Assembly: GCA_016935235.1 (NCBI GenBank)
Contig: JAFGRJ010000024.1
Coordinates: 1 to 48,559, forward strand
Source of the DNA: Candidatus Cloacimonadota bacterium
GTDB taxonomy: Bacteria; Cloacimonadota; Cloacimonadia; Cloacimonadales; TCS61
Direction: 5' to 3'
DNA length: 48,559 bases
Shown here piece by piece: positions 102 through 47,560 of the stretch. Positions within the stretch are counted from its first letter, which is position 1. Every line of letters begins with the position of its first letter. The notes under the pieces are model-generated. The model was not told the origin of the DNA, did no database searches, and saw nothing but the letters and a program-made list of their open reading frames with translations. A program made the translations under genes and the position numbers.

Positions 102-2769
<2,668 letters not shown>

Positions 2770-2778: not shown

Positions 2779-4278
2779 TTAGAATTTTTTCATGACTTTT
2801 TTACAGATCTCATGCATTTCTTCTTTAATTTCAGGTGTTATCTTGCTGGTGACCAGTTTATCCATGAAATCCTTATATTCCACATCTAATGTATGATACA
2901 TTTCTTCTTCCACTTTCCTGACATTTTCGACATTTACCTGGTCCAGATATCCTTCATTAGCCATGAATATTATCATCACTTGTTTTGCTACCGGTAGCGG
3001 AGAATATTGTGACTGTTTCAGTATTTCAACGATTCTTTCACCTCTGCGCAGCCTGTCCTGAGTTGCTTTGTCGAGGTCGGAGCCGAATTTGGCGAAAGCC
3101 TGCAATTCAAAATATTGTGCCAGGTCCAGCCTTAATTGTCCCGTTACCCCGCGCATGGATTTGAGTTGGGCGCTGCCACCTACCCGGGAGACAGAGAGTC
3201 CGGCATTGATTGCCGGTCTTATTCCGGAATAAAACAGGCGGCTGCCTAGATATATCTGACCATCGGTTATAGAGATGACATTAGTGGGAATATATGCCGT
3301 GATATCGTCGGCTTGAGTTTCTATTATGGGAAGGGCAGTGAGTGTTCCTCCTCCCAGTTCATCGTTTAATTTTGCAGCTCTTTCCAGTAAGCGCGAGTGC
3401 AGATAAAAAACATCTCCGGGATATGCTTCCCTTCCTGGTGGACGACGTAACAACAGGGAAAGTTCCCTGTAAGCCACAGCATGCTTGGAAAGATCATCAT
3501 AAATAATAAGGGCATGTTTACCATTATCCCGGAAATATTCACCCATGGTTGCTCCGGTATAAGGAGCCAGGTATTGCAAAGCAGCCGGCTCCGATGCTGT
3601 AGCTGAGACAACAATGGTGTAAGGCATGGCTCCGTGTGCTTCCAGTATCTTTACAATTTTAGCGACAGATGATTTTTTCTGTCCGACGGCGACATATATA
3701 CAGTAGACATCCGAATCTTTCTGGTTGATAATAGTATCGATGGCAATGGCGGTTTTACCTGTCTGACGGTCTCCGATGATGAGCTCACGTTGTCCGCGCC
3801 CGATGGGTATCATGGAATCGATAGATTTAAGGCCTGTTTGCAATGGTTCCTTCACCGGTTGCCTCTGAATAACACCCAGGGCTTTTCTTTCCACCGGCAT
3901 GAATTTTTCGGCTGTAATCTTTCCCTTTCCGTCTATGGGTTGACCCAGCGAATCAACCACCCGTCCCATCAGCGCTTCTCCAATCGGCACCTGCAGGATG
4001 TTACCGGTTCTCTTGGCAACATCGCCTTCCTTTATCTTACGAGTATCACCAAATAAGATACATCCTACATTATCTTCTTCCAGGTTAAGAGCCATCCCGA
4101 TTACTTTTCCGGGAAATTCCACCATCTCCCCCGCCATAACGTTCATAAGACCATATACTCTGGCGATACCATCTCCTACCTGGACAACCCTTCCGGTTTC
4201 GTTGATATCGATCTCAAATTTGAAATCATCAATCTTCTTCTTTAAAATTGCACTAATTTCATCTGGTTGAATTTTCAT
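2779..4278 (-). CDS. atpA: F1 ATP synthase alpha subunit
   Basis: 499 aa with Walker A GDRQTGKT. Overlaps atpH by 4 nt. Confidence 0.98.
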
Positions 4279-4820
4279 ATTTTCCCCTGAGGTATTGAAT
4301 TAATAAATTTCTGCAGATTGTGTGCTACGGTACCGTCGAAAGTAAGTATTCTGCTCTGGGCAATAAAACCACCGATAATGGAAGAATCAATATTAACATC
4401 CACAACTACCTGCTTTTCCAGGATCTTCTCTAGATAATCTACGATCTTCCTGATAACTTCTGCAGGTTGTTCTTTAGCCATCGTTAACTTAATAGCCTCC
4501 TTGTTCTGACTGGAAAGTATTATATTATTCATTTCAGAGAGGATATCATTTATGAGAATAAATTTATGTCTTCTGCTTAAAATCACAAACAGATTATGCC
4601 AGATTTTCTGCAGGGATGTTCCGGAGAGTATTTGCTTAAAAAGGAGTTCTCTTTCTGTGTGCGGGAAAATAAATGAATTTATTATTTTGATGTTCTCGTT
4701 TTGCTCTGAAAATACTTTCTGCAGAAATCGCAAATCTTTTGCCAGCTGGGAATACTTTTCCCCATGAATCAGATCAGTCACTGCCTTAGCATATCTTTTT
4801 GCCAGCAGGGCACTTTTCAA
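4275..4820 (-). CDS. atpH: ATP synthase delta (OSCP) subunit
   Basis: 181 aa with an OSCP-like pattern (LAKRYAKAV at the N-terminus, IGGF...DGTV at the C-terminus). Translationally coupled to atpF and atpA by 4-nt overlaps. Confidence 0.85.
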
Positions 4821-5299
4821 TTCTTACTCCGTTTTTTGAGAAGATTCGCTATTGCTTCCCTGTCTTTTTTCGAATCCATTTTTTCGGATAGAAACTTACT
4901 GCTCAGATTGGCAATCATATCCGACATTTCATGCTCGATCTGGCTGATTGCTTTTTCTCTCTCGTGAGTAAGCTGCAGGTTGGTGTCCTTGATTATTTTC
5001 CTTTCATGTTCTTTTGCTTGAGTAAGAATTTCTTCTGCTTTTTTTTCCGCCTCTTTTTTTGCAGCCTTTTTCGTTTTTCTGATCTCGGCGGCAGACATAC
5101 GAAGATCTTTCTCCTTCTGTTCAACCATTTTCTGAGCTTCTTCTTTAGCTTTGCCGGCCTCTTTAATGTCCTGGGCTATTTTTTCACTGCGTTCCTGCAG
5201 AAATCTGTTTATTGGTTTGTAAAGAAGACGATTCAGTATTACCAGTAATACCAGAAAATTCAGAATGACGATGATCAGGGTGTAATCTATTGTAATCAT
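4817..5299 (-). CDS. atpF: Fo ATP synthase b subunit
   Basis: 160 aa. One N-terminal TM helix (IIVILNFLVLLVIL) is followed by a long Lys/Glu/Ala-rich helix. Sits in the canonical operon position. Confidence 0.88.
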   Translation of the reverse strand: MITIDYTLIIVILNFLVLLVILNRLLYKPINRFLQERSEKIAQDIKEAGKAKEEAQKMVEQKEKDLRMSAAEIRKTKKAAKKEAEKKAEEILTQAKEHERKIIKDTNLQLTHEREKAISQIEHEMSDMIANLSSKFLSEKMDSKKDREAIANLLKKRSKN

Positions 5300-5332
5300 A
5301 TTAAGTTCCTGACTATCATACTGTTGATTATA

Positions 5333-5581
5333 TTAAGTTGAGAATATGAGCAGTAAAGCAATAACCAGCGAATAGATACCGGTTGACTCGGAGACAGCCT
5401 GTCCAACCAGCATAGTTCTGGTGATCAAGCTGGCGTTTTCTGGTGATCTGGCGATACCTTCACATGCTTTCCCGGCCACAAAACCTTCTCCTACACCTGG
5501 TCCAAGAGCTCCGATTCCCATGCAGATACCTGCACCAAGCAGAGCTGCGGCTCTCGCGATAAATTCCATTTTATCCTCCAT
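5333..5581 (-). CDS. atpE: Fo ATP synthase c subunit, single hairpin, Na+-type binding signature
   Basis: 82 aa. Gly-rich helix 1 ([18 protein letters not shown]), loop ARSPE, and helix 2 [14 protein letters not shown], which is nearly identical to the Ilyobacter tartaricus [14 protein letters not shown]. Confidence 0.95.
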
Positions 5582-5590
5582 TTTTGATCT

Positions 5591-6343
5591 TCATATGGCA
5601 AACAACAATAAAAAAGATATAACCAGCGCATATATGGCAGTGGATTCAGAGACTGCTGCCCCCAGAAACATCGTTCTCATGATGCTGGGTCGCTGGTCAG
5701 GAAATCTTCCTATCATATCACTGGCCCTTCCTGCTACATTACCGATGCCCACTCCCGGTCCTAAAGTGCCTAATCCGATTGATAGGCCTGCACCCAGCAA
5801 GGAAACGGATTTCGCAACGATATGGCCGAGGGAAGCATCTCTAGGTTGCAGTGGAGTTGAGTAAAGCAAAAGCAGAGCCACGACCAGAGAAAAGATTGAT
5901 GAGGTTTGAGCAAGTGCCTGGCCAATTAGCATATTTCCCATTATAGCGTTGCCATGCTTAGGCATTCTGCCAATGGACTTGCAGGCCTGACCGCCGGTGT
6001 AACCTGAACCAAGAACAGGACCGATAGAACCAAACCCTATAGCTATACCTGCGGCAAGCATTGCAGCAAATCTGTATAATCCACCCGCAGCAACATCGAA
6101 ACCACCGAAAAGGAGCAGTAAGGATATCACCAGGGAAAATATCCCCCCGGTTTCCGTAACCGCCTGACCGATAAACATATTACGAAAAATCAGATCACCA
6201 GCCTTAGGTTGCTTCATCATGGCATAGGATGCTTCCCCGGCTATATAGCCTACCCCTACCCCGGAGGTAACAGAGGCAATACTTACACTGATCCCGGCTC
6301 CTATATAGGCAGCGACTTGGATGATTTCACGGGTTATTTCCAT
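5591..6343 (-). CDS. Fused triple-hairpin (six-TM) c-subunit-like proteolipid of the F-type ATP synthase
   Basis: 250-aa uninterrupted ORF between atpB (3-nt gap) and atpE (9-nt gap). It contains three tandem c-subunit hairpins, each with a Gly-rich helix 1, a polar loop with Pro (KQP, RMP, RFP) and a helix 2. The carboxylate codons are GAA at 6152-6154 (E64) and 5645-5647 (E233). The middle hairpin has CAA (Q146) at 5906-5908. Confidence 0.85.
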   Translation of the reverse strand: MEITREIIQVAAYIGAGISVSIASVTSGVGVGYIAGEASYAMMKQPKAGDLIFRNMFIGQAVTETGGIFSLVISLLLLFGGFDVAAGGLYRFAAMLAAGIAIGFGSIGPVLGSGYTGGQACKSIGRMPKHGNAIMGNMLIGQALAQTSSIFSLVVALLLLYSTPLQPRDASLGHIVAKSVSLLGAGLSIGLGTLGPGVGIGNVAGRASDMIGRFPDQRPSIMRTMFLGAAVSESTAIYALVISFLLLFAI

Positions 6344-6346
6344 TTT

Positions 6347-7255
6347 CTACTCTGTAATCTCTGCACCGATATAGGTTAACGCTAGCATGGTAAAAACAAA
6401 GGATTGGATGGTTCCGACAAAAATACCGAAAAAAAGATTCAATCCAATGGGGAGAACCACAAACTTTACCAGAGAAGATACAACCAGCATGATGATAGCT
6501 CCTCCCAAAATATTGCCAAAAAGGCGGAAAGAAATGGAGACAGCTTTAGAAAGCTCTCCTACCATGTTCAGAGGTGCCAGAAAGGGCAGGGGTTCAAAAA
6601 ACCCCTTGAACCATTTCCAAAAACCCTTGATTCTTATACCCAGAATATGAACCAGAGATACAGCCATTATTCCAAGCCCCAAGGGGACATTCAGGTTTCT
6701 GGTTGGTTCTATGAATCCGGGAATCGGGACAATACCAATCATGTTACAGGTCCAGATGAATATAAACAGCGTGACCACGTAAGGAGTAAAATTAACCCTT
6801 TCCTCACCCAGTGTGTCCTTGACAAAATCTTCAAAAAATTTATATAAAAGTTCGAAAAGCACCTGGGGTTTGCTGGGTTTTTTAAAAAGGTGTCTTCGAA
6901 CAAGTAGAGATATGGAGATGAGAATACAGTTGACAATGAAAAGCATTCTTAAAAGCTGAAAAGAACTTAGAGCATTTTTTTCACCGAAAACTTCCCTGAA
7001 AAAGTTATAAAGTCTCTCACTTCCATATATTTCGGGAAGTTCATCTTCCTCCTGTAGATATCTGTCTGGCTGGAAATCCTCTGTTATTTTCTTCTGCAGA
7101 TCGTAGGTTTTTTCCACATTACGTAGATAAAAACGGCCATTTTCAAACCCAATCTGCAAGGCTCTGTTCAATCCGCCCGAAACCAAAACCAGCATGATTT
7201 CTAAAACCAGCAAAACCAGCAACAACTTACGTGTTGCTATCCTTTTTTCAGCCAT
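6347..7255 (-). CDS. atpB: Fo ATP synthase a subunit
   Basis: 302-aa polytopic protein with the stator Arg in SFRLFGNILGG. Carries an N-terminal extension of roughly 100 aa relative to typical a subunits. Confidence 0.92.
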   Translation of the reverse strand: MAEKRIATRKLLLVLLVLEIMLVLVSGGLNRALQIGFENGRFYLRNVEKTYDLQKKITEDFQPDRYLQEEDELPEIYGSERLYNFFREVFGEKNALSSFQLLRMLFIVNCILISISLLVRRHLFKKPSKPQVLFELLYKFFEDFVKDTLGEERVNFTPYVVTLFIFIWTCNMIGIVPIPGFIEPTRNLNVPLGLGIMAVSLVHILGIRIKGFWKWFKGFFEPLPFLAPLNMVGELSKAVSISFRLFGNILGGAIIMLVVSSLVKFVVLPIGLNLFFGIFVGTIQSFVFTMLALTYIGAEITE

Positions 7256-7637
7256 TGTTACCCCTGAAATATCCGCTTTTCTTCAGGTAGTAAAAAAGTT
7301 CTATGACGTAGATGGAAATCTGAACGGAAAGAAGTCCAAGTCCAAAGAAAAGAATGTCTGGCTTGATAAATTTTACTACTATTATCGAATACACTATTAA
7401 AAGGATGAAACTGATATAGTATCCCTTAATAGCGTTTACTTTCGCTCTGTATTGACCAGCTTCCAGGCTATTTTTCATGGAACGGGCAAGCCAGAACATC
7501 CTTGCGACTGCCGCCAGAGAACCCAGTATCCAGCCTAAAGACCTAGAAAAAAACAACGGCAATGTCAGGAAGGCGGATATGTTTGTCAAGCAAATAATAA
7601 CTAATATTTTCCGCAGGTATTTATTGATATTCATCAA
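7248..7637 (-). CDS. atpI: ATP synthase protein I-like membrane protein
   Basis: 129 aa with about 4 TM segments. Lies immediately upstream of atpB with an 8-nt overlap. Called on position and topology only. Confidence 0.6.
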   Translation of the reverse strand: MMNINKYLRKILVIICLTNISAFLTLPLFFSRSLGWILGSLAAVARMFWLARSMKNSLEAGQYRAKVNAIKGYYISFILLIVYSIIVVKFIKPDILFFGLGLLSVQISIYVIELFYYLKKSGYFRGNNG

Positions 7638-7667: not shown

Positions 7668-7904
7668 TTAATATTTTAAAACTTTCTTCAGAAACCTGTA
7701 GGAACTCCAGAAAGCGCTGATGATCCCTAAAATGATACCGAATAACAGTAAAATTCCACCGCTGTGGAATTTCCTGTCTAGGAACAGAAAAAGCAGGAAA
7801 AAGAAAAGTATGGAAAACGCTGCTATGAATCCCAGTTGAGTAATGATCACCAGGTATTTGAGGATTTCATTATTTTGTTTTTGTTTCGGTTCTGTCAGCT
7901 TCAT
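7668..7904 (-). CDS. AtpZ/AtpI-family small membrane protein
   Basis: 78 aa with two TM helices and an LDRKF...GIILGI pattern, as in AtpZ-type proteins found upstream of atp operons. The only ATG start overlaps the bactofilin 3' end by 35 nt, so the start is uncertain (an alternative GTG lies at 7850). Confidence 0.55.
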   Translation of the reverse strand: MKLTEPKQKQNNEILKYLVIITQLGFIAAFSILFFFLLFLFLDRKFHSGGILLLFGIILGIISAFWSSYRFLKKVLKY

Positions 7905-8280
7905 GTTTGGGCAAGAAGGTTGTTTGTTTGATAACTGGACTCTTTCCGCTCATAGAACTATTGCCATTAAAGACAGCCCCTGCGTTTATTTTGACTGTCT
8001 TGGCGGTAATGTCACCGCTGAGGTTAGCAGTTTTATCCAGTTCCAGTGCTTCATTTACAGAGACGTTGCCGGAGACTTTTCCGGCAATCAGGCATTCCTG
8101 AGCTTTGATATTAGCTTTAGCATTTCCCGTGGCGCCGATTGTTACAAATCCGGTTGATTCGATCTCTCCTTCTATGTCACCGTCTATTCTAACACCGCCG
8201 TCGACTTTCAGGGTACCGGATATTTTGCTTCCTCTGCCGATTATGGTAGATAATTCAACATTTTTGTTTCTTGTCATCAT
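7870..8280 (-). CDS. Bactofilin (polymer-forming cytoskeletal protein, DUF583 type)
   Basis: 136 aa with a repetitive beta-helix pattern (GTLKVDGGVRIDGDIEGEI, GKVSGNVSV, LSGDITAKTVKINAGAVFNG) and a charged disordered tail. Confidence 0.85.
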   Translation of the reverse strand: MMTRNKNVELSTIIGRGSKISGTLKVDGGVRIDGDIEGEIESTGFVTIGATGNAKANIKAQECLIAGKVSGNVSVNEALELDKTANLSGDITAKTVKINAGAVFNGNSSMSGKSPVIKQTTFLPKHEADRTETKTK

Positions 8281-8290
8281 AACCTCTTTT

Positions 8291-8968
8291 TCAGTTTATT
8301 TTTAAAATATTTTCCGGATTGATATTGATCTGGTTAAGCAATATTTCAAAATGGAGGTGAGGAGCAGAGCTGTTGCCGGTATCTCCCACCAGCCCAATAA
8401 TATTTCCTTTACCAACCATATCGCCTTTTTTAACCAGGATTTTAGCAAGATGGGCATATTTGGTTGAATAAGTATTCAAATGGTCTATCTGGATGACATT
8501 TCCAAAATATTTATCTATATATGTTTGGCTGATGATGCCAGCAGCTGCTGCAACTACTTCTGTTCCCAGAGAAGCAGCGAAATCGAGTCCCTGATGTTTT
8601 TCATTGAAGCGCTGACTGATTATATACTCGCCCTGAACGGGTAATAAATCCGGAATGAACATCTGTTCTTTCTTCAGAGAGTCCTGCCTGCTGGCAATGT
8701 CAACACCCGTGGTGGTCATCGGTTCCTGTGCCTTGTTGTTAAGGCGGTTCAGATAGTCATCGAGAAGATTTCTCAGACGTTCTTCCTTACTGATGATTTT
8801 CATGTTATCCGAATCAACCTGTGATTTCAGCTTTTCAATATAGAGATTGGAAGCTTCTATTTCCTGCTCCAGCTGCTCTATCATATATGTCAGGTTGTTA
8901 TTTCGCAGATAAAGAATTAGAGCAATAATAAAGAAAACTGCTAGCAGCAGAAAAAGATACTTATTCAT
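8291..8968 (-). CDS. M23/LytM-family peptidase with N-terminal TM anchor and coiled coil
   Basis: I chose the internal ATG at 8968 ([13 protein letters not shown]...), which overlaps the parB stop in ATGAATAA. TM helix, then a coiled coil (EQLEQEIEASNLYIEKLKSQ), then intact metal motifs HQGLD and PHLHFE. Confidence 0.85.
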   Translation of the reverse strand: MNKYLFLLLAVFFIIALILYLRNNNLTYMIEQLEQEIEASNLYIEKLKSQVDSDNMKIISKEERLRNLLDDYLNRLNNKAQEPMTTTGVDIASRQDSLKKEQMFIPDLLPVQGEYIISQRFNEKHQGLDFAASLGTEVVAAAAGIISQTYIDKYFGNVIQIDHLNTYSTKYAHLAKILVKKGDMVGKGNIIGLVGDTGNSSAPHLHFEILLNQININPENILKIN

Positions 8969-9818
8969 GACAGGTTTCCAGTTCCTTGACCAGCGAGTAA
9001 AATTCCTTCCTGGTTTTGTAATATATAGAGATTTTTCCTTTCTGGTTTCTGTCAAGGATCTTAACTCTGGTACCAAAGATCCGGGCAAGTTTATGCTCAT
9101 AATCCAGAATGGCTTGAGGTATCGGTTTAGGTTTGGTTTTGGATTGTATGTCTCCTCTTGCATTGATCTTACGCGCCTCGATTTCAGTTTTACGAACTGA
9201 AAAACCATTCTTTTCAACCAGGTCACAAAATTGTTCCTGCAGTTTTTCATCTACTTGAAGAATGGCCCTGGCATGTCCTGGTGATATTTTTTCCTCCAAT
9301 AATTTTCTCTGGATTTTATTACTCAGTTTTAAAAGCCGGATAATATTGGTGATGGTTACACGGTCTTTACCAACGATTTCGGATATCTGGGAATGGGTCA
9401 GGTTGAATTCGTCATGGAGCTGCTGATAGGCTTTTGCTTCTTCGATGGCATTGAGGTCTTCCCGCTGGACGTTTTCGATGATGGCATACTGCAGTTGTTC
9501 CCGGGGAGTAACGTTGCGAATTATAACAGGTACTTCCTCAAAACCGGCCAGTCTTGCCGCTTCAAGTCTTCTCTCTCCTGCGATTATCTCATATATCAGA
9601 TCATCTTTGCGGGTCACGATTATGGGTTGAATAATACCGTTTTCCTTGAGTGAATCAGCAAGTTCTTGCAGTTTCTGTGGATCAAAGTTTTGCCTGGGTT
9701 GAAAATGGTTGGGGATGATGTTCTCAGTTTTCAAGGTTGTTATCCCGGTGGCTCTGTCCATAGATTCGGGACCTGTTCTGATAAGGGCTTCTAATCCTCT
9801 TCCTAATTTGGTATTCAT
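8961..9818 (-). CDS. parB: Chromosome partitioning protein ParB/Spo0J
   Basis: 285 aa with the N-terminal [10 protein letters not shown], the ParB box [12 protein letters not shown] and an HTH ([16 protein letters not shown]). Overlaps parA by 4 nt. Confidence 0.95.
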
Positions 9819-10570
9819 CTTGATATAACTTCCTTTGCAAAATCGAGGTAATTCTTGGCACCGATGGATTTGATATCATAATGGAAAATCGATTTGCCAA
9901 AACTGGGGGATTCGGTAATTTTGACATTGCGTTGTATGATTGTATCAAAGACCTTTTCCTGAAAATATCTTCTTACTTCCTTGGCTACCTGTTGAGCAAG
10001 ATTCAGACGTTTATCGTACATGGTCAATAAAACCCCCAAGATGTTCAGTTCAGGATTGAGGCTTTTCTTGATCAGGCGGATAGTTGTCAGGAGTTGACTT
10101 ACACCCTCCAGAGCATAATATTCACACTGAATGGGAATCAAAACGTCAGTACAGGCGGTAAGTGCATTCACAGTGAGCAAACCCAGAGATGGAGGGCAGT
10201 CAATAAGTATATATTCATATTCGTCAATAACAGGTTCCAGGGCTTGTTTGAGTTTTGATTCTCTGGAGTATTCTTTTACCAGCTCGATTTCTGCACCAGT
10301 GAGATCCATATTGGAAGTTACAATATGCAGTTTGTCGAGAATCCGTGAAGGTTTGATGATATCTTTAACAGAGACTTTTCCGATAAGAGCATCATAGATA
10401 TTGGGATTGTCATGTTCCAAACCAATGCCACTGGAGGTATTTGCCTGAGGATCAAAATCCACCAGCAGGGTCTTCTTTTCATAGATAGCCATTGCCGAAG
10501 CAAGGTTAATGGCAGTAGTGGTTTTACCTACACCGCCTTTCTGATTTACGATCGTTATCACTCTTGCCAT
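9815..10570 (-). CDS. parA: Chromosome partitioning ATPase ParA/Soj
   Basis: 251 aa with the deviant Walker [12 protein letters not shown] and the DCPPSLG motif. Confidence 0.95.
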
Positions 10571-10574
10571 AATT

Positions 10575-11174
10575 TTAACTGACTTTTATCTCCAATAGGT
10601 TTCTTGTTCCCAGAGCCGGGTGGTTAAAAGCGTATGCTTTTACCTGCGCAGGTATCCCGACAACCTCGACCTCTGTACCCCTGTAAAGATAAACATGGCC
10701 CCCCCTTCTCAGGAGTCGAGTCATTGTGAAATAATATTCCGGTGTGATTCTGACGGAACGCGATAAAAGGGCATCAAAATAACCATTCCACTCAGAGTCA
10801 AGCTTTTCAAGCCGTGAAACAATCGTGAAACACCCGTTTAAGTCAAGTTTTTTGATTATATTTTTTACAAACAGGATTTTCCTGGCAGTTGCATCGAGAA
10901 GATAAAACTTGCTGTCAGGGAAGATAATTTTCAGGGGTATGCCAGGAAGACCTCCTCCGGTACCGAAATCAAGGACAGCCTTATTATTAAGTTCCAGTAC
11001 AGCCGCTGGCAATATGCAATCAAGGTAATGACGGGTCCAGAATTCATTAACAGGAGTTTTCCGGGAGATCAGGTTAACTTTTTGATTGGCTGATACAAGT
11101 AGAGTATGGAATTGTTCAAAGGATCTCAATATGCTGGGATAGTCTTCCTGATAATGTTTTTTTAAATAATTCAT
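10575..11174 (-). CDS. rsmG: 16S rRNA (guanine527-N7)-methyltransferase RsmG/GidB
   Basis: SAM motif [15 protein letters not shown] and the RHYLD motif. The track ORF runs to 11270, but its first 32 codons are hydrophobic and atypical for this enzyme. ATGs at 11174 or 11192 give a normal length of about 200 aa. Confidence 0.85.
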
Positions 11175-11316
11175 AAAATATTCTTTATGCATTAGGGAAA
11201 AAATCAACACAGGCAGCAATATGTCAAGGATGCCATGATAAAATAAATTAATAATTTGACAATAACCCATTCATGCAGCTAAATGCAATGAATTAAAGGA
11301 TAATCTGGATGGAACA

Positions 11317-27984: not shown

Positions 27985-30900
27985 ATGAGATCAATAATGG
28001 TTTTTCTAATAATGCTTCTAATAATACCGCAGCTATATACACTGGTGCCAGCCTGTCCTCATAAGGTTGACGGCATCCTGTGCCAATTCAGTCAGCCTTC
28101 AGAGAAGTATCCACAATATAAGAGGCAGGGCAGGCGAGAACTACCGCAGGAGATACTGGTGCTTCTTGCTGATTTTCCTGATCAGGAATTCGATCTGGTC
28201 GCTGATTACCCTGATTCTTTAGCTCATGATGCAGCCTATTTTGAACGGTTGTTCTTCCATGTTGCCAGTTATTTCAGGGATGCTTCCTATGGCATATATG
28301 AAATCAGCCAGGAGAATTTTCTGATCTGGGAACAGGTATTTACTCTGCCACAGGACATGTCTTATTATGGCGATGATGAGTACTGGACCGAGCGCATAGC
28401 CGAGTTTGCCGTGGATCTGGTGATGCTGGCTGATCCGGACATCGATTTCACCCAGTATGATGCATTCTTTGTAGTCCATGCCGGAGCCGGGCAGGAGGCA
28501 GACATAACCGGCAATAATGAAGAAGAACTCTGGAGCACTTTCCTCACACGACGTTCTCTGCAGGCAGGTCTTGATCCGGAAAATGATGATTTTCCCGGGA
28601 TCTGGTGTAATGATGGCATCTATCTGACAGAATTCGTGATCTGTCCCGAGGCTGAATGGCAACCGGATCTTGGTCCTAACGACCCCATCTATGGCGTAAT
28701 GGGTGTTTACTGTCATCAATTTGGACACCAGATAGGTCTACCCACTCTTTATGATAATGATTCTTCCAATGGCTCTTCGGGAGGTATTGGTGGTTTTGGC
28801 CTGATGGGAACAGCTCTGTGGAATGCCAATGGCTTCGTTCCCAGTCTGCCCTGTGCCTGGACGCGCTGCTACCTGGGGTGGGAAGATGAGAATCTGCTGC
28901 TGCTGGAAAGCGATCAGGTTGATCAGGCCATAGTCTTTCCCCATGCCAATGATGAAGACACGCCCCGGGTTTACCAGGCCAAGATCTCTGATAAGGAATA
29001 TTTCCTGCTGGAGAACAGGCAGCAGAACCCTGATGGCAGCACCTGGAACGGGGAAGCTACTTTCACCTTTCAATTGCTTCCTCCCGGAGAGCAGGACATC
29101 TATCCCCCTGGACATCCCTATGCCGGTCAACCCAAATTCAATTTCATGGAAAATACCTATGAGGGGTGTGAATGGGATTTTTATCTTCCCGGTCTCGGTG
29201 GTCCCGATGAGCCGGTGATAGATGGATCCGGTCTTCTTATCTGGCATATTGATGAAAATATCATCGAGGCTAATTTCGATCCTGAATTCGAATCCAATTC
29301 GGTTAACGGTGATGCTGCTCATAAAGGTGTAGATCTGGAGGAAGCAGACGGTGTGCAGCATATGGATGTTAATAACACCATCTACAGCCGCGGTTCGGCT
29401 AAAGATGCCTACCGGGAAGGGAACAACGACTATTTTGGTAAGATGTATCTTGAGAACGGGGAACTTCATCTACCGGCGGCTGACAGTTATTATGGCGGCA
29501 ATCAGCTTGAGATTTATGAGATCAGCGCCTCGGATTCACTGATGGCATTCTCGATCAGTTTTGACTGGAATTTGAATACTGGATATGTAGGTGAAAATAT
29601 TTATCCTGCCGCGGTGGTTGATTTTGATGACGATGGGGATACAGAGATATTTTATCCCATGCCGGACGGTGAGCTTTATCTCTGGGATGATTTCGAACTG
29701 GTGACAGGATTCCCGGTGGACATTAATTTTCCCCTGAGCACTTTATATGCCTATAATGAAAGAGACAGAACCTTTCTGGTGCCATATTCTCATGAAGAAC
29801 CGCAGGAATATGCCGGGCTTTTCCTGGTAAATCAGGATTATCAGGAACCTGTCTTTCCACCCTATCTGGAAAGACGCTGGGCAGCAGGTCCACTGGTGAT
29901 ACCCGGGGACGATCCCCCTTATTCCGCAGTGGTTCCCATGGAATTTACTGATGGAAGCGGCAGTGAAATCAATTTCCTGGATGAAAATTATGAAGTTGTT
30001 ACAGCGATTGCAATGGAGGATACCTGGATAATCTCAAATCTTATCTACAAGAACGGGATTCTGAGATTGTTCTGTAAGACCGGGGAAGGTTATTATCTGC
30101 ACAGCCTGAACATCATTGATATGATAGTTGTCCCTAATGATATTGATGTTTTTCCAGATTCCACGCTTATTCATTCTGCAGTTCTAGCGGATATAAACTG
30201 CGATCAACAGGATGAAATAATTGTTACTACTGTTTATCCGGACACATTGGTATACGTGTTCAACCAAGCGGTCGATCTTCTGCCGGGATTCCCGGTAGGG
30301 ATCTCCCTGCATGCCATCTCTTTTCCTTCTCTGGCAGATGTTGATGGTAACGGATGTCTTGATATCATCATCGGTGGGGAAAATTCCTTCCTCATTATTA
30401 ATAAAAACGGAGATACATCAGGTCCTTCACAGTCTTTATCTTCGCCTGACTCATTGTTTCTGGCAGCCGGGGTAATGGCTCTTGACCTAGATAACGATGC
30501 GAAGCTTGAAATAGCAGGCAATATGTCACGCAACAGGTTGACGGTTTGGGAAAACATAAATAACAACGATTTCGAGATCAACTATAATTATCCCATATCC
30601 TTTGGACAGCGCAGTCGCAGCCTTCCCATTATCGATACTTCGGATAACACTCTGTTCATGGCTGCTGACAATGGTTATATTTACAGGCAGCAATATGACT
30701 GGACGCTTTTCCTTCCCACCTGGCACTGCGAATTGGGAAATCTGCAGAGGACTTCCTCGTATCTGGGAAATCTGCCCATAAATGAATATATAACCACTGA
30801 AATATTCATAAAGGAGGAAACCTATATCTATCCCAATCCTTACAGCAGTATTTTCAACAGTACAATTGTCAATGGCAGGGAAGAGCCTGGAAAGATAGCT

Positions 30901-31110
30901 TTAAGGATAATGACCTCAGCGGATACCAGGGTCGAAATAAAAATATTTGACATTGCCGGTAATATAATACATAAGAATAAAATCGATTGCCAGGCTTATC
31001 TTAAGAAAAGCCTGCTGATACCGGCAGAAGATTTTTCATCCGGGATCTATTTTGCCCTGTTGAAAACCAGGGGAAAGGTAATGAAATTGAATTTTGCAGT
31101 TGAGAAATGA
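27985..31110 (+). CDS. Secreted M6 (immune inhibitor A)-like metalloprotease homolog with FG-GAP/VCBS-like repeats and a T9SS-type C-terminal domain; active-site Glu replaced by Gln
   Basis: 1041 aa with a signal peptide. The M6-like core contains CHQFGHQIGLPTLYD (compare HExxHxxGLPDxYD). Has DxDxDG-type repeats (DFDDDGDTEIF, DVDGNGCLDIIIGG). The C-terminal YIYPNPY...SGIYFALLK...FAVEK resembles a T9SS/FlgD-Ig sorting domain. Confidence 0.7.
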   Translation: MRSIMVFLIMLLIIPQLYTLVPACPHKVDGILCQFSQPSEKYPQYKRQGRRELPQEILVLLADFPDQEFDLVADYPDSLAHDAAYFERLFFHVASYFRDASYGIYEISQENFLIWEQVFTLPQDMSYYGDDEYWTERIAEFAVDLVMLADPDIDFTQYDAFFVVHAGAGQEADITGNNEEELWSTFLTRRSLQAGLDPENDDFPGIWCNDGIYLTEFVICPEAEWQPDLGPNDPIYGVMGVYCHQFGHQIGLPTLYDNDSSNGSSGGIGGFGLMGTALWNANGFVPSLPCAWTRCYLGWEDENLLLLESDQVDQAIVFPHANDEDTPRVYQAKISDKEYFLLENRQQNPDGSTWNGEATFTFQLLPPGEQDIYPPGHPYAGQPKFNFMENTYEGCEWDFYLPGLGGPDEPVIDGSGLLIWHIDENIIEANFDPEFESNSVNGDAAHKGVDLEEADGVQHMDVNNTIYSRGSAKDAYREGNNDYFGKMYLENGELHLPAADSYYGGNQLEIYEISASDSLMAFSISFDWNLNTGYVGENIYPAAVVDFDDDGDTEIFYPMPDGELYLWDDFELVTGFPVDINFPLSTLYAYNERDRTFLVPYSHEEPQEYAGLFLVNQDYQEPVFPPYLERRWAAGPLVIPGDDPPYSAVVPMEFTDGSGSEINFLDENYEVVTAIAMEDTWIISNLIYKNGILRLFCKTGEGYYLHSLNIIDMIVVPNDIDVFPDSTLIHSAVLADINCDQQDEIIVTTVYPDTLVYVFNQAVDLLPGFPVGISLHAISFPSLADVDGNGCLDIIIGGENSFLIINKNGDTSGPSQSLSSPDSLFLAAGVMALDLDNDAKLEIAGNMSRNRLTVWENINNNDFEINYNYPISFGQRSRSLPIIDTSDNTLFMAADNGYIYRQQYDWTLFLPTWHCELGNLQRTSSYLGNLPINEYITTEIFIKEETYIYPNPYSSIFNSTIVNGREEPGKIALRIMTSADTRVEIKIFDIAGNIIHKNKIDCQAYLKKSLLIPAEDFSSGIYFALLKTRGKVMKLNFAVEK

Positions 31111-32053: not shown

Positions 32054-35000
32054 ATGAAAGTTAGATTACTTCTGGTAATGATATTTCTGACTGTGCAGGC
32101 GCTTTCCGGAAATACTCCGGATAGGGTGCCCCGGGAAATGATCGTGAGAACCGGTGAAGTACGCCAGATTAGAAATATGGGGCTGGGTCTGGCGGATTTC
32201 GACCAGTTCCTAAGCGATAACCAGGCTCACAAGATCAAGCCGATCACCAATAAAAGCGATAATCGTTATTATGTGATTTCTTTTATGGATGAACTGGATT
32301 GGGATGAAATTAATGCAGTTGAATTCGAAGGAATAGATTACATTCAACCCAATTATATCAACAGGTTTAACATGATGCCTAACGACACTTATTTCGTTAC
32401 CGGTGATCAATGGGCACTTCATCAGGAGGATGGTCTTGATATCAATGCGGTTGAAGCCTGGGATTATACTACGGGCAGCAGTCAGATCATAATCGGTCTG
32501 GTAGATTCTGGGCTTCATTTTGATCATCCTGATATTCAGCAGAATGTTTTTTATAATGACGGTGAAATTCCTGATGATGGGATCGACAATGATGAAAACG
32601 GTTATGTGGATGACTGGCGGGGCTGGGATTTCGTTGATGCTGCCGAACTGGTCGATATAGCTTTAGGTGACTATATTGATCAGGATAATGATCCAACCGA
32701 TGATCTTAATCACGGAACTCATCTCGCCGGGATTATTGCGGCGGATACCAATAATGAACAGGGGGTGGCTGGAATATGCTGGCATGCACGGATACTGGTG
32801 ATCAGGGCAGGATTTAAAACAGTTGATGGCGTAGGTTATCTTCAGGACGATGATGCTGCTGCCGGTATCATCTATGCAGCCGACATGGGTGCTGATGTCG
32901 TTAATGTAAGCTGGGGTGATGACACTTTTTCCCAGATCATCGGGGATGCCTGTAGCTATGCTTACCAGAAGGGAACAATAATCGTGGCTTCCTCCGGCAA
33001 CACCTACGGTCCGGGAATAATGTATCCAGCATACCTTTCTACTACCATCAGCGTTGGTTCTGTAGATCATTTCTTTCAGAGAGCATCATTTTCCAGTTAC
33101 GGACCACAGCTTGACCTGGTGGCTCCCGGCGTTTCAATATTCAGTTCCTATGGAAACGATGAGGATAATTATTACAAGGAACAATCGGGAACATCCATGT
33201 CAGCTCCTTTTGTAACAGCCAGCATTGCCCTTCTGTTGTCGGTAGAGTCAGGATTTTCCTTTAATCAGATCAGGACCAGGCTCAACAGCTCCTGTTTTGA
33301 TCTGGGGACAGATGGCTATGATAATGAATACGGAAACGGTCTTCTTGACATTGAAGGATTTCTTACCAACACCTCCTGTCCCATATTGGAGATAACTTAT
33401 CCCACTGAAAATTCAGGATTCAGCCAGAATTTTGACATTATCGGCACTGTTCTGGCAGATAATTTCTCCAAGTACACAGTAATGTACACTACCAATCCCA
33501 TTCCATCACCGATGGACTGGTTAGATGTAACATATCCCCATAGCAATACTCCGGTATATAAATTTATCCAGGCTGATAATGAGGTTCTGGCTACATTCGA
33601 TATCCAGGGAATAAGTCCGGAATTTGATGAATATCGGTTGAAACTGGAAGTAATGACCACGGATAATAAGCATTACGACACGAGTAGAAATATATTTATC
33701 GATAAAACGGAACCAACCTTTTATGATTCTCTGGCGGGCATCATGAAAAGGTATGACGGCGAATATGTTAAATACTATTTGCAGGCAGTTTTCAACGAAC
33801 CCATATATGCCCAGATCTATTATTCTCCGCAGGATGGGCCGAGACGGGAAGTGTCCTGCAGCAATTTCGCCGATTCTGTTCAGATCATTTACATCCCCCG
33901 CCCGGAGATGGGGGACGAGGATATATTTGTTGATGCGACCAACATATGTGGTCTGGAAATCTATCTAACTCCTCAGGATCATACTTATATGCTGCCTGAT
34001 GATTTTGAAAGTATTGCAGTCAATGACTATATTCAGGAGCTGGGGGGCAACATGATTGTCGCTGCCCGGAAACCGCTGGATGTGGATGGCAATGGCTTCA
34101 TGGAATTTCTGGCTCTCGAATTTGATGAAGATGGCAATCAAAACCTGAGAATTTTCGAATTCGCTGATGACGAACTGATAATTAAAACCTCCTTTTCCTT
34201 CGACATCTGGCCGCAGGACATCGGGTATACTGCCCCGGGGGATTTCACCATTCTGGGGGTGGACGGTGATCTGGCAATGTTGTATAATTGTGAAGCTGGA
34301 AGCCTCTATCCCAACCATCTCTTATGGGTGGAGACCAATGTTTATGGCGGTAGCCTGATAGATTTCGATAATGATGGTATTGACGATATAGCTATTATAA
34401 AGAATGAAAACATAGGTAATACCACCCAGCGGGTTCTAGCCCTTTATAAAAGGTACACTAACGGAATATTGAAACTCCATACCATTTTGAACCAGACCCC
34501 CACTTCCTTCAAGAACGAGTTTGTGAACAGGATCTATTGTGGAAATCTGGATGGCGATGTTTATCAAGACCTGCTGCTCAGCGATACGGACGGTGATATC
34601 TTGATAATCGAGAAAGATAATTATCCCAATGAATATGAAGTGAAATTCTATCACCGTTTACCTGTAGGCAATGCCTATTATGCCGCGATGGGAGATTTTA
34701 CGGGCGATGGCCTGCAGGATTTCTGTGTGGGTGGTTTTTCTAGAAATTATGCTGATCCTTACAAGACTTTTTCCTTCTTCGAATTCTTCACCAGTACAGC
34801 AGTGAATGACGAATATATTAGCCTGGGATATCTCAGCTTTGACCAGGTGGAAGCTAAAAATTCGATAGCCAATGCCGATCTGGATGGTGACGGAGATGAT
34901 GAAATAATCCTCTGTCTTCCCCCCAATGCCTATATAATAGATTATGTGAATGGCCAGTTCAAACCGGTCTGGAAGGGAGATGCATCAATAACCTTTCAGA

Positions 35001-36289
35001 ATACAATTACAGCTATTTCTGCCTCCGAGTTCGAAAACGGCAAAGCCCTGCTTCCCCTTGAATCTGCCGGCGATGTCCACACTAGCCTGATCACGAAGGC
35101 AGCTGATTTTACCGGGCCACCTACCCCGGGGAATTTCACGGTTCAGCCTCTGAACGAGAACAGTGCGAGATTGTGCTGGGGCTGGGAAGGGAATTTTGAT
35201 TTTTTCAATATCTACCGGCAGCAGAATGGCGCAGTCGAATTGCTCGATTCAGTAACTGACCTCAGGTACACAGATACTGGATTATCTCTGGGTGATACCC
35301 TTACTTATCAGATAACCCTGGTTGACAGCCAGTTTTATCCTGCCGAAAGTCGACCCACGCTTTGGAAACAGGCCGTTCCCATGCCAGTTCCCCAGATTGT
35401 TTCCATCAGGATGGCAGCAACCAATATACTCAGGGTTGAGTTCGATCAGATGCTCAACAACGATGCCATAGGAGTTATTCACTACAAGGTTAATAACAAT
35501 GTGGGCAGACCAGTTTCCGTCAATTTCATCATAGAGAAAAAAGGTCTGATTATGACCTTTCTGAAGCCGTTACCTGACTTTGGGGACTATGAGCTGGAAA
35601 TAACCGGTATTACTGGCAACACGGGAGTTCCATTTCCAGATAGCGTTTTTCCCTTCGATCATCAATCAGATACTGAACCACCTTCTATCATCGCTGCCCA
35701 TGTAAAAGGAAAACAGGTGGTAAAAATATACTTCTCAGAAGCGATACAGGAAGATGATATCATAGACCTGGATAACTATTCCCTTGTACCACCATCCACG
35801 GATAGTGATAATGAGATTGTCGATCTTGTCTATCACCAGGCTTTTCCCGATTCTTTCTTTGTGGAAGTATTCCTGCTCAAGGAAATGGAATATTCCAGGC
35901 GCAGATATTTTCTTAAGGTCAGCGATATTCATGACCTGGTCGGGAATGTAATCACCAATAACGGAAATAAATGCAGGTTCAGCTTAACTGATATTACTGA
36001 TCTTGATAATGTAAAAGTATATCCCAATCCTTTCTACCCTGCCACTGATACTGAATTGAAATTCGTTCAGCTACCGCTTGGGGAAAAGGGCAATATCTGG
36101 ATTTATGATCTGAGCGGGGAGATCATTTATCATAATGAATTCGGACCACTCACCGATTCGGAGTTCAATAATATTTACAGCTGGAATGGTAAAAACGGGT
36201 CTGGTAATAAGGTATCATCAGGTATTTATTTTTATGTAATGAGAATGGGATCAGCCTATAAAAAAGGGAAATTTGCATTAATAAACTGA
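32054..36289 (+). CDS. Secreted S8 (subtilisin-like) serine protease with FG-GAP, FN3/Ig-like domains and a T9SS-type C-terminal domain
   Basis: 1411 aa. The catalytic triad contexts are intact: GLVDSGL (Asp), HGTHLAGIIAA (His), GTSMSAPFVTA (Ser). The C-terminal VYPNPFYP...SGIYFYVM...KFALIN is a sorting-domain pattern. Confidence 0.85.
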   Translation: MKVRLLLVMIFLTVQALSGNTPDRVPREMIVRTGEVRQIRNMGLGLADFDQFLSDNQAHKIKPITNKSDNRYYVISFMDELDWDEINAVEFEGIDYIQPNYINRFNMMPNDTYFVTGDQWALHQEDGLDINAVEAWDYTTGSSQIIIGLVDSGLHFDHPDIQQNVFYNDGEIPDDGIDNDENGYVDDWRGWDFVDAAELVDIALGDYIDQDNDPTDDLNHGTHLAGIIAADTNNEQGVAGICWHARILVIRAGFKTVDGVGYLQDDDAAAGIIYAADMGADVVNVSWGDDTFSQIIGDACSYAYQKGTIIVASSGNTYGPGIMYPAYLSTTISVGSVDHFFQRASFSSYGPQLDLVAPGVSIFSSYGNDEDNYYKEQSGTSMSAPFVTASIALLLSVESGFSFNQIRTRLNSSCFDLGTDGYDNEYGNGLLDIEGFLTNTSCPILEITYPTENSGFSQNFDIIGTVLADNFSKYTVMYTTNPIPSPMDWLDVTYPHSNTPVYKFIQADNEVLATFDIQGISPEFDEYRLKLEVMTTDNKHYDTSRNIFIDKTEPTFYDSLAGIMKRYDGEYVKYYLQAVFNEPIYAQIYYSPQDGPRREVSCSNFADSVQIIYIPRPEMGDEDIFVDATNICGLEIYLTPQDHTYMLPDDFESIAVNDYIQELGGNMIVAARKPLDVDGNGFMEFLALEFDEDGNQNLRIFEFADDELIIKTSFSFDIWPQDIGYTAPGDFTILGVDGDLAMLYNCEAGSLYPNHLLWVETNVYGGSLIDFDNDGIDDIAIIKNENIGNTTQRVLALYKRYTNGILKLHTILNQTPTSFKNEFVNRIYCGNLDGDVYQDLLLSDTDGDILIIEKDNYPNEYEVKFYHRLPVGNAYYAAMGDFTGDGLQDFCVGGFSRNYADPYKTFSFFEFFTSTAVNDEYISLGYLSFDQVEAKNSIANADLDGDGDDEIILCLPPNAYIIDYVNGQFKPVWKGDASITFQNTITAISASEFENGKALLPLESAGDVHTSLITKAADFTGPPTPGNFTVQPLNENSARLCWGWEGNFDFFNIYRQQNGAVELLDSVTDLRYTDTGLSLGDTLTYQITLVDSQFYPAESRPTLWKQAVPMPVPQIVSIRMAATNILRVEFDQMLNNDAIGVIHYKVNNNVGRPVSVNFIIEKKGLIMTFLKPLPDFGDYELEITGITGNTGVPFPDSVFPFDHQSDTEPPSIIAAHVKGKQVVKIYFSEAIQEDDIIDLDNYSLVPPSTDSDNEIVDLVYHQAFPDSFFVEVFLLKEMEYSRRRYFLKVSDIHDLVGNVITNNGNKCRFSLTDITDLDNVKVYPNPFYPATDTELKFVQLPLGEKGNIWIYDLSGEIIYHNEFGPLTDSEFNNIYSWNGKNGSGNKVSSGIYFYVMRMGSAYKKGKFALIN

Positions 36290-45926: not shown

Positions 45927-46324
45927 ATTCCTTTCCTCTTTAAGGTGTTCAAATACCTTTTTAATGAGGTTCGTTGTCAATTATTTTAACAATAATCTTC
46001 CTGTGGAGCTGATCCCGGCATTATATCTAAAAAAACAAGGAGGATAATTTGCTGATTTTAAATTACATTATGAGAATAAGAACGGACATTAATTATTACT
46101 GTGAAGTTTTTTTACTTCAGGAGATGATCTACAGCGTGATCTTCCGGGAATGAGATAGTCTGGGACTGATCAGAGAGAAGACAAAGGTGTTGATAGAAAA
46201 GTCAACATTGTAGGGGAAAAAATATTTTTAATGGAATATTTTATGCTATATTTAATTATAAAGTATAAATTTATAATTAGTGATATTACATTCCTGAAAA
46301 TTTTTTTGGATGAGGGAGGTTGCC

Positions 46325-47560
46325 ATGAAAAAGTCATTTCTCCTGTTAATCCTGTTAATACCTTTAACCTGTGATGCCTATTTCTGGAGTGCCATCGGTC
46401 CCCAGGGCATCATTGTGAATGATTTTTATGTAAAGCAGATAGGGCAGATGTATGAAATTATTTGTGCTGAGGACGGTTTATATATCTTTGCCGGCGATGA
46501 ATGGATTAATTATAATTATGGCTACCTGCCGGCTGTAGCAGCCACAGATCATCAGGAAACAGATTTTCTGGTGATTCTGGCAGATGGCAGTTGGTCGGAC
46601 GGTATCTATATTTTCAATCTCATCACTCACGAGCATGAAATTCAGGAATGGTGTTATTACCCTAATTTTATCCTGTACTGCAGCAGTAATTCCAGGTATT
46701 ATGTTGGTTACTACTACGGATTGTATGAATCGCTGAATGGGACTGATTGGAATGATATACCTTTTTTTTCTGGAATAAACTGTACAGCCATGGCTTATCG
46801 GGAAAATCATCTGGTAGTGGCTGAAATGAGTAACCTGGCCAGGGTATACTATTCCGATGACTATGGCGAGAATTGGAATACAGCCGCCCAGGCACCTTTC
46901 ATTAATGACATGATTTTTCATGAAAATGATATTCTCTATGCCATTTTTCCTGATACCAGCAATTCATCGGGGATATGGAAGTCAGAGAATTATGGAGCCA
47001 GCTGGTCTTCAGTTCTCTATTGTGATGGCATGACCAGTATCAATCACGATTTTGACAGTAATATCTTTGTCGGCTGGGGCAATTCATTTTCCACCAGATA
47101 TGAAGGAGTTGCCCGGTGGAACCCGGATACAAATCAGCTATTTGAAATGAATGAAGGATTACCCGATACAGAGATCAATCATCTGACCGTACACCCGGTA
47201 GTTGATTGTGTCAATATCGTTGCCTGCACCGGGAACGGGGTCTATATGCTTACAGACTATCAGGTGAGCAAGGGAAACGAGATAGTGCAGTATAAAACGG
47301 AATTGTACAATAATCCCAATCCCTTTAATCCGACCACAACAATTCACTTTTCTCTTATCGGTTATCCCGACGGTATTCTGGAAATTTTTAATCTGCTGGG
47401 GCAGAAGGTAAAGGTTATCGAACTAAATGGCAATACGGGTAGTGTGAACTGGAATGGACACGATTATAATGGGCGAGCAGTGCCTTCTGGGGTCTATCTG
47501 TATCGTATCACTACTGCCAAGAGAAACACCCAGCTGCGTAAGATGACTCTCCTCAAATAA
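46325..47560 (+). CDS. Secreted Asp-box (BNR) beta-propeller protein with T9SS-type C-terminal sorting domain
   Basis: ATG at 46325 after GAGGGAGG, followed by a signal peptide. Asp-box-like repeats (SLNGTDW, SDDYGENW, SENYGASW). The C-terminus is NPNPFNPTTTIHFSL...SGVYLYRI...MTLLK. Confidence 0.75.
   Translation: MKKSFLLLILLIPLTCDAYFWSAIGPQGIIVNDFYVKQIGQMYEIICAEDGLYIFAGDEWINYNYGYLPAVAATDHQETDFLVILADGSWSDGIYIFNLITHEHEIQEWCYYPNFILYCSSNSRYYVGYYYGLYESLNGTDWNDIPFFSGINCTAMAYRENHLVVAEMSNLARVYYSDDYGENWNTAAQAPFINDMIFHENDILYAIFPDTSNSSGIWKSENYGASWSSVLYCDGMTSINHDFDSNIFVGWGNSFSTRYEGVARWNPDTNQLFEMNEGLPDTEINHLTVHPVVDCVNIVACTGNGVYMLTDYQVSKGNEIVQYKTELYNNPNPFNPTTTIHFSLIGYPDGILEIFNLLGQKVKVIELNGNTGSVNWNGHDYNGRAVPSGVYLYRITTAKRNTQLRKMTLLK

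Follow-up and report, generated by a model that had tools for sequence, protein, structure and literature searches.

A 48,559-nucleotide stretch of DNA from a Candidatus Cloacimonadota bacterium (contig JAFGRJ010000024.1 of assembly GCA_016935235.1; hereafter the window) carries, within an F-type ATP synthase operon on its minus strand, an open reading frame (ORF) in which three c-subunit hairpins are fused head to tail. We consider it likely that this gene, named c3 here, encodes a functional six-helix F-type c subunit, which co-assembles with the product of the neighbouring one-hairpin c gene (atpE, the monomer) in the heteromeric ring of a Na+-coupled F1Fo ATP synthase. The minus-strand gene order is gene1(atpZ)-atpI-atpB-c3-atpE-atpF-atpH-atpA-atpG-atpD-atpC, with c3 sitting between atpB and atpE. 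The c3 protein was cut into hairpins at amino acids (aa) 84/85 and 168/169, giving the following features:

5591..6343, minus strand: fused three-hairpin c subunit gene (c3), 250 aa plus stop; supported by the ORF, PF00137, the AlphaFold2 (AF2) model and the ratio of nonsynonymous to synonymous substitution rates (dN/dS)
6092..6343, minus strand: hairpin 1, aa 1-84; Glu64; Val31 at the position of Ilyobacter tartaricus Gln32; residues 66/67/70 are T-G-F
5840..6091, minus strand: hairpin 2, aa 85-168; Gln146 replaces the carboxylate
5594..5839, minus strand: hairpin 3, aa 169-250; Glu233; Ile200 at position 32; S234-T235-Y238 ligand face

A preliminary description of this DNA had read the 250-aa ORF as three fused hairpins with six helices expected, and both points were borne out. 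Pfam detected three non-overlapping PF00137 (ATP-synt_C) stretches in c3 (E 1.7e-41, 140.7 bits against a cut-off of 24), and each NCBIfam F-type subunit-c model also matched three stretches (TIGR01260, 104.6 bits against a cut-off of 43.95), with F-type models reaching 153-157 bits. The AF2 model, calculated with a 63-sequence family alignment as input, displayed six long helices, three cytoplasmic loops and two short linkers, and was confident including the linkers (predicted local distance difference test (pLDDT) 96.1, predicted template modelling score (pTM) 0.90). The helix 1 strings in the translation (GAGISVSIASVTSGVG, AAGIAIGFGSIGPVLG and GAGLSIGLGTLGPGVG), the loops KQP, RMP and RFP, and the codons of E64 (GAA, 6152-6154), Q146 (CAA, 5906-5908) and E233 (GAA, 5645-5647) match that description exactly. 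The helix-2 carboxylate is present in hairpins 1 and 3 (E64 and E233) and missing from hairpin 2 (Gln146), which departs from the norm of F-type c subunits; the earlier count of two carboxylates holds for the window, while the family as a whole ranges from three to none. The full Na+ ligand set is absent at both Glu sites of c3, position 32 being occupied by Val (hairpin 1) or Ile (hairpin 3), and residues 66/67/70 of hairpin 2 are T-S-F, thus placing Phe where Tyr70 would serve the hairpin 3 site. The three hairpins are just 39-43% identical to each other, so the fusion is old and not an assembly stutter, as had been supposed; each is 48-55% identical to the neighbouring atpE product, with which hairpin 3 shares 41 of 74 positions (55%; about 40 of 70 had been estimated).

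The monomer gene and an element at its start are located as follows:

5333..5581, minus strand: one-hairpin c subunit gene (atpE), 82-aa ORF; PF00137 E 8e-18
5574..5579, minus strand: GGAGGA Shine-Dalgarno (SD)-like element, 4 nt upstream of the second atpE ATG

In the monomer the two-carboxylate Na+ motif is complete (Glu at position 32, V63, E65, S66, T67 and Y70), so that Na+ coupling would be the likely mode, in agreement with the Rnf-based energetics reported for Cloacimonadota in the literature. The monomer ORF opens ATG GAG GAT AAA ATG (window 5567-5581), with the GGAGGA element inside its first 'codons'. Because a GGAGG(A) element precedes the monomer ATG by 4-5 nt at all loci inspected, the true start is probably the second ATG (5567-5569), which would make the protein 78 aa long; the 82 aa given earlier are correct as the length of the ORF. 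At the loci inspected c3 starts 3-6 nt past the atpB stop (3 nt in the window), with a weak GGAG or AGAG upstream that overlaps this stop, and in the window the gap between c3 and atpE is 9-21 nt.

The fused ORF recurs intact in related genomes. A search of 5.8 billion proteins revealed more than 110 clusters (90% identity) of c3 relatives, 240-257 aa long and 57-84% identical, and every cluster with a named source came from Cloacimonadota/Cloacimonetes metagenome-assembled genomes (MAGs). In species-representative genomes the fusion was found at 27 loci, all of them Cloacimonadota, with the order atpZ-atpI-atpB-c3-c-atpF-atpH-atpA-atpG-atpD constant where the contig reaches far enough. When the a subunit served as the query, nine further Cloacimonadota-type operons came up, one of which lies on a contig binned as Armatimonadota; of these, 9/9 contain a three-hairpin gene and 8/9 the monomer gene, the contig of the ninth (L114) stopping within the fusion. 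The fusion is therefore present in 36/36 Cloacimonadota-type operons sampled (27 + 9) and the monomer wherever the contig runs past the fusion, and at the related loci atpI and gene1 are present with the operon in every case. Ordinary one-hairpin c genes only were found with 17 more distant atpB relatives, which served as a negative control for hairpin counting. Locus L068 / L117 (contig JABMPU010000218.1, labelled Armatimonadota) has an atpB 67% identical to that of the window and Cloacimonadota-type c genes; this contig is probably misbinned, or its atp operon was transferred.

In pairs with unsaturated synonymous divergence, dN/dS was 0.03-0.09 for the fusion and 0-0.02 for the monomer, and the proportion of nonsynonymous differences (pN) was comparably low in every c3 hairpin, the carboxylate-free hairpin 2 included. 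Judged by these substitution patterns, c3 is a genuine gene under purifying selection in all three hairpins. The fusion diverges faster than the monomer (56-84% versus 86-96% identity).

To follow the carboxylates through the family, 114 full-length relatives (clusters at 90% identity) were aligned and residues were read at the I. tartaricus/Fusobacterium nucleatum ligand positions. At the carboxylate position, hairpin 1 has Glu in 63, Gln in 41 and Gly in 10 clusters, hairpin 2 Gln in 112 and Glu in 2, and hairpin 3 Glu in 95 and Gln in 19. Where hairpin 1 has Glu, position 32 is mostly Glu too (the two-carboxylate motif), the Val of the window being common to a minority of clusters. Hairpin 3 has Ile at position 32 nearly throughout and retains S66, T67 and Y70 in 114, 111 and 111 of the 114, respectively. 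About 50 clusters, the window among them, show the pattern E-Q-E, followed by Q-Q-E (37), E-Q-Q (about 11), G-Q-E (6) and E-E-E (2), and eight have no carboxylate at all (Q-Q-Q or G-Q-Q). The carboxylate number in this family spans three to none, with nearly every state sampled. The carboxylate-free relatives (P0059, P0062, P0076 and P0086 with Q-Q-Q; P0070, P0080, P0083 and P0087 with G-Q-Q; locus L106, 4001-4750) are full-length all the same and retain S-T-Y on hairpin 3, and a ring with such a fusion would hold three consecutive ion-less positions.

The F. nucleatum structure paper (3ZK1) places each Na+ site between two adjacent c subunits, with Glu32 and Glu65 from one subunit and Val63:O and Ser66:Oγ from the adjacent one; Glu65 is hydrogen-bonded by Tyr70 and Ser66, and Thr67 holds the coordinating water. 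As sites are shared by adjacent subunits, selection on residues 66/67/70 of a hairpin should vary with the presence of Glu in its neighbour if the fusions are ring members. A covariation test covered 70 multi-hairpin representatives of F-like type. Tyr70 of hairpin i showed no association with the carboxylate of its own hairpin (odds ratio (OR) 0.94, p 0.88) but a strong one with that of hairpin i+1 (OR 25.7, p 9e-5), whereas Glu/Gln32 of hairpin i followed its own carboxylate (OR 26.6, p 1.4e-17). In the last hairpin of these representatives S/T-T-Y is present with or without its own Glu. In Cloacimonadota the S/T/Y face of hairpin 3 is kept also in 51 clusters whose hairpin 1 lacks Glu (Gln or Gly), and therefore the next hairpin in the ring must normally be a Glu-bearing one, for which the monomer is the sole candidate. 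The monomer carries Glu in every case among the loci dissected. This pattern of residues argues that the fusion would sit in a mixed ring beside a monomer.

From gene, domains, fold, selection, context and covariation we infer co-assembly, a ring order, an ion specificity and a changed ion ratio. In the ring, one fusion or a few would be set among Na+-binding monomers, in the order monomer, hairpins 1-2-3, monomer, and each ion site would draw residue 32 and Glu65 from one hairpin and the 63/66/67/70 face from the hairpin before it. At the hairpin 1 site, Glu64 would face the S-T-Y residues of the preceding monomer, with the position-32 ligand replaced by Val31. The hairpin 2 site, having Gln146 and no carboxylate, would be dead and carry no ion, and the hairpin 3 site, composed of Glu233 and Ile200 with T-S-F from hairpin 2, would be stripped and possibly proton-locked or of low Na+ affinity. 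The site of the following monomer would be completed by the hairpin 3 face (S234/T235/Y238). Such a ring would have fewer coupling ions per turn than hairpins. If the ring had 11 hairpins, the number in the three closest solved rings, a single fusion of the window's type would by arithmetic leave 10 carboxylate sites and 3.3 ions per ATP, versus 3.7; a Q-Q-E fusion would leave 9 sites (3.0 ions per ATP) and a Q-Q-Q fusion 8 sites (2.7), and more fusion copies per ring would bring the ratio to 3.0 to 2.7. At a lower ratio, ATP hydrolysis could build a steeper Na+ gradient, for example driving Rnf backwards in syntrophic oxidations, at the cost of a higher threshold for ATP synthesis.

Several points weigh against this proposal. 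The c3 protein and the mixed ring are predictions made from genes and a modelled fold. The covariation p-values are optimistic, the sequences being related, and internal Tyr70 cases are few (10). The neighbour rule has exceptions, and hairpin 3 of the window has Glu233 although hairpin 2 gives Phe at position 70. The strong SD element of the monomer and the weak one of the fusion are compatible with a sub-stoichiometric fusion, but this argument is weak, SD usage being uncalibrated for the phylum. Finally, the Q-Q-Q and G-Q-Q fusions, and the five-hairpin E-Q-Q-Q-Q proteins described below, would force the ring over 3-4 consecutive ion-less positions; we know of no current rotor model shown to pass these in the synthesis direction.

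The same observations may be read in other ways. The fusion could mainly nucleate assembly or serve as a template for ring size, a single copy fixing register and hairpin number, perhaps together with AtpI, carboxylate loss being tolerated drift. A template would suit the free variation of the carboxylate pattern in one family (E-E-E, E-Q-E, Q-Q-E, E-Q-Q, Q-Q-Q), the conserved hairpin number, linkers and packing residues, the constant company of atpI and gene1, and the faster evolution of the fusion than of the monomer. We nevertheless regard this explanation as unlikely, since Gln at the hairpin 2 site in 112/114, the lineage-stable Glu/Gln states and the strong purifying selection are unlike neutral decay; a template would also need to be incorporated into the ring, and hence overlaps with the co-assembly proposed above. 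Still more doubtful, and rather improbable in our view, is that the fusion forms a homomeric ring of its own (e.g. four copies, with 12 hairpins and 8 sites) as an alternative low-ratio rotor under some conditions. Homomeric rings of multi-hairpin subunits do exist in V/A-type enzymes, and a Dependentiae four-hairpin c gene stands alone after atpB with no monomer gene alongside; yet here the two genes share an operon that leaves no space for separate promoters, the monomer persists throughout and is extremely conserved, and the S-T-Y face of hairpin 3 is constant where hairpin 1 lacks Glu, which would be pointless if hairpin 3 abutted the hairpin 1 of another fusion. That three tandem atpE genes (tandem copies occur in other bacteria) were merged by sequencing or assembly error, or that c3 is a decaying duplicate, was rejected as having a negligible chance, because the frame is uninterrupted in more than 110 clusters and 36 genomes, the hairpins have diverged to 39-43% identity, dN/dS is 0.03-0.09 and the AF2 model is confident including the linkers, and nothing found here supports an artefact.

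We compared c3 with known systems. Its best solved chain by sequence was c1 of Acetobacterium woodii (4BEM_J, E 2.4e-27), followed among the Protein Data Bank (PDB) matches by A. woodii c2 and then by the Na+ c subunits of F. nucleatum (third) and I. tartaricus. The same 4BEM_J was the best fold match (Foldseek E 2.4e-08, template modelling (TM) score 0.81 normalised to the target), with four-helix V-type c subunits next, so the parallel with A. woodii c1 drawn in the preliminary description stands on both counts; no solved chain among the fold matches covers all six c3 helices. The A. woodii F/V-hybrid c-ring (PDB 4BEM) contains nine copies of that organism's c2/c3 and one c1, with 10 Na+ sites. 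Like A. woodii, the window has an F-type operon with a multi-hairpin c gene right after atpB and then a one-hairpin c gene, and as with A. woodii c1, Gln takes the place of the carboxylate in one hairpin and the monomer has a Na+ motif. The window thus holds the gene pair that marks an F/V hybrid, a multi-hairpin c with a carboxylate-free hairpin and a one-hairpin c with a complete site. The neighbour rule is also obeyed by A. woodii c1, in which ETSGIF (Phe70) precedes the dead site and QTTGIY (Tyr70) the live c2/3 site. In contrast to the two hairpins and one site of A. woodii c1, c3 has three hairpins and two carboxylates, and its dead site lies in the middle hairpin instead of the last. 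Moreover, unlike in A. woodii, the live sites of c3 are without a Gln/Glu32 ligand and the monomer is of the two-carboxylate type (E32), not Q32. The hosts of c3 and c1 are Cloacimonadota and Bacillota, respectively, and the c3 ring is a predicted one.

The ligand set of the F. nucleatum c11 ring (3ZK1), E32/V63/E65/S66/T67/Y70, is identical in the monomer of the window; unlike the window, F. nucleatum lacks a fused subunit, its ring being homomeric and its c gene the only one. The V-type c subunits of eukaryotes and Enterococcus hirae, with four helices and one carboxylate, are likewise duplicated hairpins with site loss, and compared with c3 they gave TM scores of 0.76-0.84 normalised to the target at merely 24-28% identity.

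The A1Ao proteolipid of Methanocaldococcus jannaschii, as Ruppert et al. are said to have described in 1999, has three hairpins and two carboxylates, the missing carboxylate reportedly being that of the first hairpin. It resembles c3 in holding six helices and two carboxylates in one polypeptide, and differs from the window in belonging to an A-type enzyme with a sole c gene and a homomeric ring. An A/V-type triplicated proteolipid was tried as an identity for c3 and rejected: NF004913, a 220-position V-type K model that spans three hairpins, scored 59.1 bits against a cut-off of 211, and the operon is F-type, with a, b, delta and AtpI recognised by Pfam and alpha, gamma, beta and epsilon from translations. 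With F-type profiles fitting and NF004913 far under its cut-off, c3 consists of F-type hairpins and is no relative of the archaeal triplicated proteolipid. N-ATPase operons, as reportedly set out by Dibrova et al. in 2010, have the order atpD-C-Q-R-B-E-F-A-G and no delta subunit. An N-ATPase (TIGR03322) was rejected too, the window having the canonical order with atpH; the 132 bits of c3 on this model are a sum over three hairpins, and the monomer scored 69.9 bits against a cut-off of 130.85.

Multi-hairpin c subunits were also found in other phyla. An exhaustive HMMER search through 1.84 billion representatives (50% identity) yielded 1652 matches, 65 of them below E 1e-30, including many proteins of ~160, 245, 320 and 410-435 aa that correspond to 2, 3, 4 and 5 hairpins, as delimited by alignment to a hairpin hidden Markov model, and nearly all tested multi-hairpin matches scored highest with F-type models. 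An alignment-based scan of species genomes kept 80 loci, whose ORFs were then dissected. A monomer accompanies a four-hairpin c at 43 loci, a three-hairpin c at 29 and a five-hairpin c at 3, with the context atpB-c[n]-c[1]-atpF(-atpF')-atpH-atpA-atpG at almost all of these, an arrangement borne out for two exact-protein look-ups with precomputed Pfam calls. Among the carriers are many Desulfobacterales (including the cultured Desulfoferrobacter suflitae DRH4 and MAGs assigned to Desulfonema limicola and Desulfosarcina), Planctomycetota/Phycisphaerae, Latescibacterota, Anaerolineales, Nitrospinaceae, Victivallales, Hydrogenedentota and Methylomirabilis. Commonly, hairpin 1 has Glu (often E32 + E65), hairpin 2 Gln and the other middle hairpins mostly Gln, while the last hairpin has Glu or Gln yet retains S/T-T-Y; the extremes are E-Q-Q-Q and E-Q-Q-Q-Q. 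Five-hairpin proteins of 405-406 aa were seen at L034 and L037 (E-Q-Q-Q-Q) and L058 (E-Q-Q-Q-E), in Desulfobacteraceae/Proteobacteria MAGs at about 3254-5203, followed downstream by a monomer c and two atpF genes.

When scored hairpin by hairpin with profiles, the first and middle hairpins of the other phyla matched Cloacimonadota hairpins 1 and 2, but by slim margins of 5-6 bits, and their last hairpins resembled monomers, not Cloacimonadota hairpin 3. All these proteins may form one class of F-type rotors across phyla, in which a c subunit of 3-5 hairpins with zero to all carboxylates is inserted in a ring of Na+ monomers, a tentative generalisation to which we give a little less than an even chance. 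If it is true, the ion/ATP ratio would be programmable, up to four consecutive ion-less positions would lie in a block, and the ring would have to cross a gap of ~120 degrees without ion translocation.

A large separate family was observed at L108-L113 (~5001-5960) in Candidatus Dependentiae / TM6 MAGs, with a ~320-aa four-hairpin c of the pattern E-Q-E-D/E. Of the 114 complete multi-hairpin representatives that were dissected, 44 are of this kind. Their gene directly follows atpB, and neither a monomer c nor an atpF was found within 5 kb downstream; in this endosymbiont lineage the protein may form an F-like ring that is homomeric and multi-hairpin. Even longer chains, in which all hairpins have Glu, are P0167 (968 aa, 11 c hairpins), P0172 (524 aa, 7), P0228 (631 aa, 8) and P0178 (1139 aa, 15). 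P0167 scores best on F-type models and would thus be a whole ring in one chain, while P0178 scores V/A-type; a genome search for relatives of the 11-hairpin P0167 found none in species genomes.

The remaining genes of the operon are listed below, those of alpha, gamma, beta and epsilon being named by reading their translations. With the monomer beside the fusion, they make up the canonical F-type operon of the preliminary description, in the order it gave with atpZ in front, and the order matches the related loci.

7668..7904, minus strand: ATPase gene1 / AtpZ-like small membrane protein; PF09527 E 5e-07
7248..7637, minus strand: atpI; PF03899 E 4.7e-06
6347..7255, minus strand: atpB (a subunit), 302 aa; PF00119 E 4e-48, residues 104-296
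4817..5299, minus strand: atpF (b subunit); PF00430 E 2e-21
4275..4820, minus strand: atpH (delta/OSCP); PF00213 E 2e-25
2779-4278, minus strand: atpA, from translation; alpha P-loop GDRQTGKT
1912-2769, minus strand: atpG, from translation
494-1891, minus strand: atpD, from translation; beta P-loop GGAGVGKT
102-497, minus strand: atpC, from translation

The atpB product has a ~100-aa N-terminal extension (aa 1-103) ahead of its ATP-synt_A domain, and its length of 302-308 aa is constant in Cloacimonadota, compared with 224 aa in Desulfobacterales operons. Upstream of the operon, window 7870-11270 (minus strand) appears by eye to encode a bactofilin-like protein, an M23-type peptidase, a ParB-like protein, ParA (KGGVGKTT) and RsmG/GidB, an origin-proximal type of neighbourhood; the M23-type ORF overlaps the ParB-like ORF by ~290 nt, so its start was probably called too early. 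No Na+ energetics genes such as Rnf were found in the rest of the window, which holds housekeeping and secreted-peptidase genes instead. Por_Secre_tail (type IX secretion) sorting domains occur in ORFs 27985-31110 and 46310-47560 (both plus strand), the former with a peptidase M6 domain as well and the latter with no peptidase domain, and in ORF 32054-36289 (plus strand, 1411 aa) a subtilase (S8) was the only domain detected. These ORFs fit a proteolytic organism of the FCB group.

No description of a c subunit with at least three hairpins in an F-type operon was found in the literature searched, although an earlier description is possible, and two Cloacimonadota genomics papers mention merely the presence of an F-type ATPase. 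The preliminary description knew of no earlier account of such a fusion, which holds in that no characterising paper was found; the fusion is not rare, however, being common in sequence databases and universal in the Cloacimonadota-type operons sampled, with 3-5-hairpin versions in many other phyla. The principle is already known from A. woodii, whose F-type ring combines monomers with a multi-hairpin c that is partly dead. Not found in the literature searched are the three-hairpin version, its universality in the sampled operons, the graded carboxylate loss and the 3-5-hairpin versions across phyla.

The number of ion-carrying sites in a c-ring sets the ion/ATP ratio, which in turn fixes the minimum potential for ATP synthesis or the maximum gradient attainable from hydrolysis, a central matter for life at the thermodynamic limit. 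To our knowledge, the A. woodii enzyme, with two hairpins and one dead site, has so far been the sole F-type enzyme known to tune this ratio by a fused, partly dead c subunit. The genes described here carry the bare label 'ATP synthase F0 subunit C', and standard stoichiometries are taken for granted in metabolic reconstructions of these phyla. Together with its 3-5-hairpin relatives, the Cloacimonadota protein would provide a natural series running from 0 to 4 dead sites, in organisms of Rnf-type Na+ energetics and syntrophy, making it testable how a rotor passes ion-less positions and whether the step from F- to V-type proteolipids, duplication followed by site loss, is adaptive.

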